Shown: positions 31,614 to 34,420, counted from the first letter of the stretch. The stretch: DNA of 34,633 nucleotides from Escherichia coli (GCF_003334815.1 NZ_QOWO01000038.1), one strand, 5' to 3'. Numbers and translations are program-made. The notes: generated from the sequence alone by a model not told the origin.

Positions 31614-32507
31614 ATGAAACCGCAGGTGTACCACGTCGATGCTTTTACCTCACAACCGTTTCGCGGCAATTCTGCCGGTGTTGTTTTCCCCGCCGATAAT
31701 CTTAGCGAAGCGCAAATGCAGCTTATCGCCCGCGAGTTAGGCCATTCGGAAACTGCTTTTCTGCTGCACAGCGACGACAGCGATGTGCGCATCCGCTACT
31801 TTACGCCAACGGTTGAAGTGCCGATTTGCGGTCACGCGACAGTAGCTGCGCACTATGTACGTGCGAAGGTGTTAGGTTTAGGAAATTGCACGATCTGGCA
31901 AACATCGCTGGCAGGAAAACATCGCGTGACTATCGAAAAGCACAACGATGATTATCGTATTTCGCTGGAACAAGGTACGCCGGGCTTTGAGCCACCGCTG
32001 GAAGGTGAAACACGTGCGGCGATTATCAACGCGCTTCATCTCACTGAGGACGATATTCTGCCAGGCTTGCCAATTCAGGTGGCAACAACAGGACACTCAA
32101 AAGTGATGATCCCACTGAAACCGGAAGTGGATATCGACGCCCTTTCGCCTGACCTTAATGCGCTGACCGCTATCAGCAAAAAGATTGGCTGCAATGGTTT
32201 CTTCCCGTTCCAGATCCGCCCAGGCAAAAACGAAACCGATGGTCGCATGTTCTCGCCTGCGATTGGTATTGTGGAAGATCCGGTGACTGGCAATGCCAAT
32301 GGCCCGATGGGTGCATGGTTGGTACATCACAACGTATTGCCCCACGATGGCAACGTGTTGCGTGTTAAAGGCCATCAGGGGCGCGCATTGGGGCGTGACG
32401 GTATGATTGAAGTGACGGTGACAATTCGTGATAACCAACCGGAAAAAGTCACCATTTCAGGCACAGCGGTGATTTTGTTTCATGCCGAATGGGCAATTGA
32501 ACTCTGA
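31614..32507 (+). CDS. yddE: PhzF-family (phenazine biosynthesis-like) isomerase of unknown substrate
   Basis: 297-aa ORF, RBS CAGGAG upstream; recognised as YddE. Confidence 0.88.
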   Translation: MKPQVYHVDAFTSQPFRGNSAGVVFPADNLSEAQMQLIARELGHSETAFLLHSDDSDVRIRYFTPTVEVPICGHATVAAHYVRAKVLGLGNCTIWQTSLAGKHRVTIEKHNDDYRISLEQGTPGFEPPLEGETRAAIINALHLTEDDILPGLPIQVATTGHSKVMIPLKPEVDIDALSPDLNALTAISKKIGCNGFFPFQIRPGKNETDGRMFSPAIGIVEDPVTGNANGPMGAWLVHHNVLPHDGNVLRVKGHQGRALGRDGMIEVTVTIRDNQPEKVTISGTAVILFHAEWAIEL

Positions 32508-32515
32508 AACCGTTG

Positions 32516-32591
32516 TCTGATGCGCTTCGCCTGTCAGGTCTACAACCGGGCTAATGTATGCCGGATAAGGCGTTTACGCCGCATCCGGCAA
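32516..32591. repeat. BIME: two REP elements between convergent yddE and nhoA
   Basis: GTCTGATGCGCTTCGCCTGTCAGGTCTAC and TGCCGGATAAGGCGTTTACGCCGCATCCGGCAA match REP consensus families. Confidence 0.75.
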
Positions 32592-32602
32592 CCTGACATA
32601 AA

Positions 32603-33448
32603 TTATTTTCCCGCCTCCGGGTGCGTATCAAACGCCGCCATCACCAGCGCTAACTCATCCACGGTAAAGCCATGTTTCGCATCATCCACGCCCAGACCAA
32701 ACTGTTCTTGCATCACAGCATATAATGACGCCACATCCGGTAGATTTCGCTGCTCCACCGCGTGCCCATTTTCATAATGGGTAAAATGAAAATTGGTCAG
32801 TGTCAGCTTGCCGCCGTCCGGCAAATGGCGGCACATCAGCAAATGATGGCGAAAATGCGACTGCGGCCAGTGCGCCGACCAGAAATTGCCCATCACATAA
32901 TCGCTTTGTTGCTGCTCGCAGAGATCAAAACGGTACATCGACTGCCAATGCTGATGATGATTAAACTGCAACACCCAATCATCACCCTCCTGCAACAACC
33001 GATACTCTCCGTGTGGCGTGGTCTGCACGAGATCGGAAACTAAACGAATCGGCGCGGTTAGCGTCTGCCCACCGAAAGCGACATCAGCAATCCATTTTTC
33101 CTCTTCCAGTTCCACCAACAGCAAACGATGGGTGCGCGGCGGTAATGCTGGCGGATTTGATAACACTACGCGCCCTAACAAGCTGCGAACGTTAAACCCC
33201 AGCTCGCGTAACACCCGCTCAAACACGCCATTCTGCTCAAAACAGTAACCGCCACGACGGGCTATCACCAGTTTCTCTTCCGGCGATTGATTATCAAGCT
33301 GTATTTCCCTCGGCAGCAAAACGTCGAGGTTTTCAAACGGAATGGTGCAATTGTGTTTCAGGTGCAATGCACGAAGCGTATCAATATTGACCGCAGCAGC
33401 TCCCGACCAGTTAATACGGGCAAAATAGTGATTCAGAATGGGCGTCAT
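32603..33448 (-). CDS. nhoA: Arylamine N-acetyltransferase / N-hydroxyarylamine O-acetyltransferase
   Basis: 281-aa ORF; NAT-family protein with catalytic Cys region (RRGGYCFEQN). Confidence 0.92.
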   Translation of the reverse strand: MTPILNHYFARINWSGAAAVNIDTLRALHLKHNCTIPFENLDVLLPREIQLDNQSPEEKLVIARRGGYCFEQNGVFERVLRELGFNVRSLLGRVVLSNPPALPPRTHRLLLVELEEEKWIADVAFGGQTLTAPIRLVSDLVQTTPHGEYRLLQEGDDWVLQFNHHQHWQSMYRFDLCEQQQSDYVMGNFWSAHWPQSHFRHHLLMCRHLPDGGKLTLTNFHFTHYENGHAVEQRNLPDVASLYAVMQEQFGLGVDDAKHGFTVDELALVMAAFDTHPEAGK

Positions 33449-33620
33449 CAGGCGTTTCCCTTAGTGGTTTTCTCAACTTATAACCTGGAATAGACGCCGC
33501 ACCGGCTATTTTGTGCGATCGCGGACATGCATCACGTTCGCAAATCGCCAATCCCGTTAATTTCGTTACTTATTGCGTTACGGACTACGCTTAAAAAAAC
33601 CTTCTTCGCGAGGCGATACC

Positions 33621-34190
33621 ATGAGCCGATTCATCCCCATAGAATTACACCATGCCAGCCGTCTGTTAAATCATGGCCCAACGGTCTTGATCACCAGTTT
33701 CGATGAGCAATCCCAGCGGCGTAACATTATGGCTGCAGCCTGGTCAATGCCGGTGGAGTTTGAACCTCCACGCGTGGCGATTGTGGTAGATAAATCGACA
33801 TGGACCAGGGAGTTGATTGAACATAACGGTAAATTTGGCATCGTTATCCCGGGCGTTGCAGCAACTAACTGGACGTGGGCGGTGGGAAGTGTGTCGGGGC
33901 GTGATGAAGATAAATTTAATTGCTATGGCATTCCGGTTGTGAGAGGCCCGGTATTTGGTTTGCCTCTGGTCGAGGAAAAATGTCTGGCGTGGATGGAGTG
34001 TCGATTGCTACCTGCGACTTCTGCGCAAGAAGAATACGACACGCTGTTTGGCGAAGTAGTATCAGCAGCGGCAGACGCACGGGTATTTGTCGAAGGCCGC
34101 TGGCAGTTTGATGATGATAAGCTCAATACGTTGCATCATTTAGGTGCTGGGACGTTTGTTACCAGCGGCAAGCGTGTTACGGCGGGTTAA
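33621..34190 (+). CDS. yddH: Flavin reductase-like domain protein
   Basis: ORF-track frame 33573-34190; start placed at ATG 33621 after GAGGCG ([11 protein letters not shown]...), 189 aa. Confidence 0.85.
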
Positions 34191-34420
34191 GCATTCATGC
34201 TATAACCAGGTTTCTTTATCAAAGCCTCCATTTGGGGCGCGATTTCGGCATCCCAGATAGCTTGCCAAGATTCTGGTTGAATCTGCTGTAGAGCAATGCT
34301 TATCGAACTGTCTTTACTGTTCAGATGACGAATAATAACGTCGGTAATATCTGCAGCAAGTGCTGCTTTTTGTTGTTCGTCCAGTTCACGCGGAAAACAT
34401 TTAATGTCGATGTGCGGCAT
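34187..34420 (-). CDS. pptA: 4-oxalocrotonate tautomerase-family enzyme (N-terminal Pro catalytic residue after Met removal)
   Basis: ORF-track frame 34187-34459; start placed at ATG 34420 ([21 protein letters not shown]...), 77 aa, preceded by AGGAG. Pro at position 2 is the tautomerase-superfamily hallmark. Confidence 0.85.

Follow-up and report, generated by a model that had tools for sequence, protein, structure and literature searches.

The genes yddE, nhoA, yddH and pptA of Escherichia coli, with which this analysis deals, occupy the last 3.6 kb of a 34,633-nucleotide stretch of genomic DNA (GCF_003334815.1, NZ_QOWO01000038.1; the whole 34.6-kb stretch is called the window, and coordinates are given in its numbering). 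Several described systems come close to parts of this locus. Purified NhoA acetylates nitroreduced tolcapone in E. coli and deletion of nhoA abolishes the product; the reductase feeding NhoA with reduced tolcapone is NfsB, encoded far from the locus, and the main text of that paper does not mention yddH, pptA or yddE (PMC13171619). NhoA is here the acetylating step on a reduced nitroaromatic, the reductase-plus-N-acetyltransferase chemistry that an earlier note on this DNA had imagined, but the reductase is unlinked to the nhoA locus. Acetylation of p-aminobenzoic acid has also been attributed to NhoA (PMC12093962). The arylamine N-acetyltransferase (NAT) of Salmonella typhimurium (structure 1e2t) is the orthologue of NhoA (74% identity, tblastn) and is encoded in the same place, beside yddE and narV; this locus, however, like the typical Salmonella enterica one (nhoA, yddE and the narZ operon), is without yddH, pptA and yncG, a glutathione transferase gene, indicating that nhoA is kept without them.

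The remaining systems resemble the locus through single proteins. YddE belongs to the fold family of Pseudomonas PhzF (trans-2,3-dihydro-3-hydroxyanthranilate isomerase), PhzF structures being its next solved relatives after its own (E ~1e-25), but no phz genes lie by yddE in E. coli, Salmonella, Trabulsiella, Cedecea or Moellerella; membership in the PhzF family does not imply phenazine chemistry. PptA shares the tautomerase superfamily and the N-terminal proline with 4-oxalocrotonate tautomerase (4-OT; DmpI/XylH), but reaches only 24.6 and 21.9 bits against the DmpI/4-OT equivalogs, whose cut-offs are 70 and 80, and catechol meta-cleavage genes were found neither within the window nor in the related loci. 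In the mycobacterial nat operon the flavin reductase gene hsaB lies beside nat, which would parallel the nhoA-yddH pair. YddH, however, scores 19 bits against the HsaB reductase model (cut-off 230); no oxygenase gene adjoins yddH in E. coli and none was seen in the partly annotated open reading frame (ORF) maps of the related loci, and the E. coli locus has neither a monooxygenase partner nor sterol-catabolic genes.

Our preferred reading, to which we give a probability of roughly 0.68, is that yddE, nhoA, yddH and pptA are four independently transcribed and functionally separate orphan genes, adjoined by lineage-specific accretion in a rearrangement-prone segment, and not a pathway cluster. 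The identities of the genes, their distribution over genomes, the breakpoints between them and their separate upstream elements were observed, and the weakness of the linkage suggests that the four share no common pathway. NhoA would acetylate arylamines and N-hydroxyarylamines from acetyl-CoA via Cys69-His107-Asp122, its gene being served by a conserved promoter of its own. yddE would form a unit by itself, with a conserved -10-like motif and with its ribosome-binding site covered by a leader hairpin; it adjoins narV in the Escherichia/Citrobacter/Salmonella lineage and follows narV, not nhoA, upon insertions. pptA and yddH would be a convergent overlapping pair in which pptA responds to superoxide through SoxRS, and the sole older association would be the loose order yncG> pptA> <yddH nhoA>, passed down vertically in Enterobacteriaceae and broken up many times by unrelated genes. 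The genes, their families, structures and adjacency are already in the standard E. coli annotation, and the locus is no new kind of system. Three of the four proteins have a solved structure or a characterised activity, and a physiological role in E. coli has been established for none. A genuine pathway cluster would have offered a useful starting point, most of which the comparative data take away.

Gene order and distribution across genomes

Synteny was anchored on nhoA. Scanning a one-genome-per-species collection gave 79 distinct loci, flanked by up to 10 kb per side, in which the E. coli proteins were sought by tblastn and phmmer and the ORFs were clustered: 49 loci are from Enterobacteriaceae, with NhoA of at least 60% identity, and another 28 hold a distant NAT (40-46%). 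The earlier note had proposed that the four enzymes share one undefined aromatic substrate and that their adjacency reflects a metabolic or regulatory link. All four families can indeed act on aromatic or conjugated small molecules, and in E. coli the four genes form an unbroken row that is near-universal (the 3.6 kb matches E. coli K-12 MG1655 at 100% identity, and 5348 of the 5426 complete E. coli genomes contain 80% or more of it). The proposal nevertheless fails on phylogenetic co-occurrence: the four genes share a 20-kb locus in 14 of the 49 Enterobacteriaceae species, all Escherichia or Citrobacter, and are contiguous in four (three Escherichia and Citrobacter youngae). The distribution of yddE is independent of the others (present in 14 of the 46 loci with sufficient downstream flank), typical Salmonella has yddE and nhoA only, and the upstream regions have no motif in common. 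The tolcapone and boric-acid papers hold no phenotype shared by the four genes: the boric-acid screen recovered a complementable yddE deletion, with nhoA, yddH and pptA unmentioned in the main text, and literature searches for the four genes together gave gene lists only. The comparative data already largely refute a shared substrate, and we give this reading almost no credence; a four-gene pathway in K-12 is rejected because comparison with other bacteria indicates that the genes were assembled piecemeal. Adjacency in K-12 is accordingly no basis for inferring a common substrate of YddE, NhoA, YddH and PptA.

yddE is best treated alone or with narV. It lies beside narV only in Escherichia, Citrobacter and Salmonella, and its orthologues in Trabulsiella (79% identity), Cedecea (76%) and Moellerella (70%) are solitary, in three unrelated contexts; Trabulsiella has an nhoA-yddH-pptA-yncG block at another site, without yddE. 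In Enterobacter, Klebsiella, Kluyvera, Pluralibacter, Kosakonia and others nhoA directly abuts narV and there is no yddE at the locus, and where the whole narUZYWV operon is missing, nhoA adjoins a TetR/SmvA efflux pair. A tie between yddE and the narZYWV nitrate reductase operon can be envisaged, with yddE as a 3' appendage that would be co-transcribed by read-through or co-induced in stationary phase. It would account for the position of yddE on the same strand 78 bp after narV, for a hairpin without a T-run that follows narV, and for two Citrobacter loci (L009 and L011) in which insertions part yddE from nhoA and leave it 81-130 bp from narV; the junction is also retained in Escherichia, Citrobacter and Salmonella, and the whole narZ-to-pptA segment was captured in one piece on IncHI1B plasmids. 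We give this tie little credence, since the conserved -10-like CTATGAT before the yddE leader suggests a promoter of its own, most genera with narZYWV at the locus have no yddE, and the Trabulsiella, Cedecea and Moellerella orthologues have no nar genes nearby. Furthermore, we know of no chemistry that links a PhzF-type isomerase to nitrate respiration.

Without yddE, an older collinear order is found across the family, yncG> pptA> <yddH nhoA>, often split by insertions. Direct adjacency was recorded for nhoA and yddH in 27 of 46 loci, for pptA and yddH in 8 of 29, and for yncG and pptA in 11 of 19. Among the loci with enough flank, yddH is retained within about 10 kb of nhoA in 35/38 and pptA in 28/38, compared with 34/46 for the functionally unrelated narV; both yddH and pptA lie within 10 kb of nhoA in 26 of the 38 informative species. 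The genes found between them are unrelated (among them a PhnS/U-like ABC transporter, a metallo-beta-lactamase-fold protein, diguanylate cyclases, an EF-G-like gene, LacI/MFS/enolase genes, and an FtrA-like regulator with an isochorismatase-family gene). Such a degree of conservation is to be expected from vertical inheritance in Enterobacteriaceae. Of the cluster drawn in the earlier note, at most a loose nhoA-yddH-pptA neighbourhood within this family stands, joined by yncG, which the note had not listed, while yddE drops out of it.

This neighbourhood could alternatively be a loosely linked Enterobacteriaceae detoxification guild for nitro-, nitroso-, amino-aromatic or quinone-imine electrophiles. 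YddH would carry out a flavin-mediated reduction, PptA would tautomerise a reactive intermediate, NhoA would acetylate the amine or hydroxylamine and YncG would conjugate electrophiles to glutathione, proximity arising from joint selection although each gene has its own promoter. Several observations favour such a function and weigh against simple accretion. Order and orientation are conserved across genera, and yddH is the nhoA neighbour kept most often, slightly above the nar genes. In one locus without yddH (L036), pptA lies directly beside nhoA. Divergent homologues (nhoA 47-51%, pptA 53-63% identity) are re-associated, tightly, co-directionally and in different orders, in Siccibacter colletis (yncG> pptA> nhoA>, then a convergent 39% YddH-like gene; L051, 9019-11466) and, in operon-like form, in Buttiauxella izardii (nhoA> pptA>, with a 59-bp gap; L052, 10001-11070). 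A YncG-like glutathione transferase gene (phmmer E 1e-54) directly follows the NAT gene, on the opposite strand, in Sphingomonas deserti (L074, 10821-11489), the sole cross-family echo among the 28 distant NAT loci. Xenobiotic or redox chemistry is plausible for each of the families, and a Deinococcus PptA-like gene lies amid MarR, quinone oxidoreductase and other redox genes. pptA is induced by paraquat in a SoxR-dependent manner (PMC2064960). The sampling, too, was mostly NhoA-anchored and gave few contexts for yddE, yddH and pptA.

On the other side, the association is limited to one family, its retention is no better than that of the unrelated nar operon, and every gene pair is split by unrelated insertions. 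Typical Salmonella retains nhoA alone of the yncG-pptA-yddH-nhoA set, a regulatory motif common to the set was not found, pptA and yddH are listed as an excludon, and the reductase shown to feed NhoA is NfsB, not YddH. No biochemistry is known that would tie a tautomerase to a NAT. Relatives of YddH, PptA or YddE were found within 10 kb of the distant NAT genes in 0 of the 28 loci, the plasmid-borne NAT genes of Klebsiella and Mycetohabitans have none of the other families nearby, and no NAT or tautomerase lies near the 66-68% identical YddH copies in Limnobaculum and on a Pantoea plasmid. Other PptA-like genes (42-45% identity) adjoin cupins, glyoxalase, or MarR and quinone-oxidoreductase genes, and one Salmonella genome has a yddH> <pptA pair with no nhoA within 10 kb. 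We hold a detoxification guild to be unlikely, and even less likely its stricter version, an Enterobacteriaceae-specific split-promoter module of nhoA, pptA, yddH and yncG for reactive N-substituted aromatics (nitroso, hydroxylamino, quinone-imine). If the stricter version were true, the orphan tautomerase PptA would gain a physiological role as partner of the N-acetyltransferase, and the Buttiauxella nhoA-pptA pair and the Siccibacter yncG-pptA-nhoA run would be compact forms of the module. Accretion of separate genes is still the reading that we prefer; any coupling should be looked for between nhoA and pptA (with yddH and yncG), ideally in the operon-like Buttiauxella and Siccibacter arrangements.

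An inserted three-gene ABC transporter was observed between yddH and the nhoA promoter, co-directional with nhoA and about 3.5 kb upstream of it, in many species of Enterobacter, Klebsiella, Kluyvera, Raoultella and Kosakonia (L020, L022, L024-L026, L037, L039, L041-L044, L046 and L048). The transporter has a binding protein and a permease similar to those of the 2-aminoethylphosphonate PhnS/PhnU type, with scores below the cut-offs.

Upstream elements and transcription

The elements upstream of the genes differ from one another. In most of the 27 directly divergent nhoA-yddH spacers, alignment revealed the box CGCACAAAA followed by a -10-like TATAA(G/A); the element is weaker in some Enterobacter and Lelliottia. 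In the 14 loci with the ABC transporter between yddH and nhoA it is kept, exact or degenerate, within the 70-80 bp directly upstream of nhoA. An element that travels with nhoA past an inserted transporter must be assigned to that gene and not to an operator common to both divergent genes, and a shared divergent nhoA/yddH promoter was rejected on this ground. The exact box occurs once in the window; a search of the window did not find it upstream of yddE, yddH or pptA. Its spacing of 18 bp from TATAAG fits a class II MarA/SoxS/Rob site (marbox), but, judged by eye, the nhoA box is a poor match to the marbox consensus: the second recognition element, RYYAAAY, is missing in E. coli and Citrobacter, and the identification of the GCAC box of nhoA as a marbox was rejected. 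The conserved box offers a handle on the regulator of nhoA.

The region before yddE is organised differently. The narV-yddE spacer folds with a z-score of -3.05, and across 12 aligned spacers from Escherichia, Citrobacter and Salmonella both CTATGAT and the two arms of the hairpin over the yddE Shine-Dalgarno sequence are conserved, a C-to-T change in Salmonella preserving a G.U pair; the GC-rich hairpin directly after narV is variable. This leader is absent upstream of the yddE orthologues at other loci. CTATGAT probably acts as a promoter element, and the leader hairpin may control translation or mRNA stability.

For pptA and yddH, RNA sequencing has placed the convergent pair among 'excludons' (PMC12288877), which implies mutually exclusive, not joint, expression. 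Shared regulation or transcription of the four genes is unsupported on several counts: the nhoA box occurs once in the window and moves with nhoA alone, the yddE leader is of another kind, the strands alternate, and pptA and yddH form an excludon.

Between the convergent yddE and nhoA lies a stable hairpin (z-score -2.3), probably a repetitive extragenic palindromic (REP)-type element by its likeness to the GCCGGATG...CATCCGGC type. This element accounts for the many matches of the 3.6-kb query, a median of 14 per E. coli genome, as a dispersed repeat would give. A generic scan for promoters and terminators was uninformative, with fewer hits than in shuffled sequence, and an inverted-repeat search returned just one palindrome, internal to yddH. 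Rfam has no match in 31-34.6 kb, and over the whole window it identifies a single element, SECIS_3 (84 bits, 19431-19489, minus strand), inside fdnG, as expected for formate dehydrogenase-N.

Gene identities and features of the locus

The RefSeq annotation and the ORF list agree on the positions of narV, yddE, nhoA, yddH and pptA, and the reading frames of the last four are all intact (4/4). The descriptive part of the earlier note is borne out: four enzyme genes follow narV in a row, the span 31614-34420 runs exactly from the start codon of yddE to that of pptA, yddE and yddH are on the plus strand and nhoA and pptA on the minus strand, and the statements that the genes are not one operon, the strands alternating, and have no defined common pathway are correct. 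Its assignments of the four proteins to families are likewise upheld by models, domains and structures.

YddE exceeds the cut-offs of the PhzF-family equivalog NF007625 (554 bits; cut-off 386) and of TIGR00654 (442 bits; cut-off 76), and aligns over its full length (297 residues) to the solved structures 1qy9, 1sdj and 1qya. NhoA clears the NF011621 cut-off of 493 with 625 bits, aligns from end to end with the Salmonella NAT 1e2t (E 3e-148) and carries the Cys-His-Asp catalytic triad (Cys69, His107, Asp122). PF01613 is found on every listed YddH homologue, including a 97%-identical cluster, and the nearest solved relatives of YddH are 3hmz ('Flavin reductase domain protein, FMN-binding', from structural genomics; 1e-36) and the flavoredoxins 2d5m and 3bnk. 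PptA passes the equivalog NF002324 (158 bits; cut-off 83), its residues 2-77 align to the solved YdcE structures 1gyj, 1gyx and 1gyy, and its N-terminus, MPHIDIK, has the proline right behind the start methionine; the family is narrow, a set of 1.84 billion proteins containing 253 of its representatives at E <= 0.001. The 3' ends of yddH and pptA overlap by 4 bp (34187-34190).

The GC content of pptA is 43% overall and 38.5% at third codon positions, compared with 51-56% and 50-68% in its neighbours. A single horizontally acquired island was considered and is unsupported: yddE, nhoA and yddH have an ordinary GC content (51-52%), and pptA alone is low.

Table 1 Features of the narV-pptA region, in window numbering.
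Feature	Coordinates	Strand	Basis
narV (annotated narI)	end 31535	+	RefSeq annotation, ORF list
narV-yddE spacer	31544-31609	+	fold, 12-spacer alignment
GC-rich hairpin without T-run after narV, variable	31544-31572	+	fold
Conserved -10-like CTATGAT upstream of yddE	31581-31587	+	alignment
7-bp hairpin GTTCTCC...GGAGAAC, 3' arm being the yddE Shine-Dalgarno GGAGAAC	31589-31609	+	fold, alignment
yddE, PhzF-family isomerase-like, 297 aa, solved structure	31614-32507	+	ORF, annotation, family models
Palindromic element between convergent yddE and nhoA, taken to be REP-type	32533-32597		stable hairpin
nhoA, arylamine N-acetyltransferase / N-hydroxyarylamine O-acetyltransferase, 281 aa	32603-33448	-	NF011621, 1e2t alignment, triad
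nhoA upstream element: box CGCACAAAA (33509-33517), -10-like TATAAG (33477-33482)	33477-33517	-	spacer alignment
yddH, flavin-reductase-domain (PF01613) protein, flavoredoxin-like type, 189 aa	33621-34190	+	annotation, homologues
pptA (ydcE), tautomerase superfamily, 77 aa, catalytic-type Pro1	34187-34420	-	NF002324, YdcE structures

Variants, plasmid copies and insertion sequences

In Klebsiella pneumoniae, according to a preprint (bioRxiv 10.64898/2026.05.15.725383), 10/10 glyphosate- or fosfomycin-evolved mutants shared the yddH (KPN_01888) missense variants Arg114Leu and Ala118Glu; variants that recur so uniformly may just as well separate the parent strain from the reference genome.

Copies of the locus are also found on IncHI1B plasmids of poultry and human E. 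coli and of E. fergusonii, which hold a captured narZ-narH-narW-narI-yddE-nhoA-yddH-pptA segment (L097, NZ_CP063488.1, 8581-17787; L098, NZ_CP080128.1, 7010-7786). Compared with K-12, identity is about 92% for pptA and about 95% for nhoA, and IS1 abuts the 5' end of a truncated pptA; other plasmids retain just the truncated pptA and yddH. Selective mobilisation of the genes was rejected as an explanation of these copies: IS1 captured the entire narZ-to-pptA segment, truncating pptA.

On the chromosome of K-12, the ISAs1-family ydcC, a second ISAs1-family pseudogene and an Rhs remnant lie between pptA and yncG. In E. coli WP5-S17-ESBL-10, IS1414 (IS256-like) is inserted about 150 bp upstream of the start codon of pptA, between pptA and the ISAs1-family ydcC (L095, 3876-5084); the best matches include at least four more strains with this insertion.

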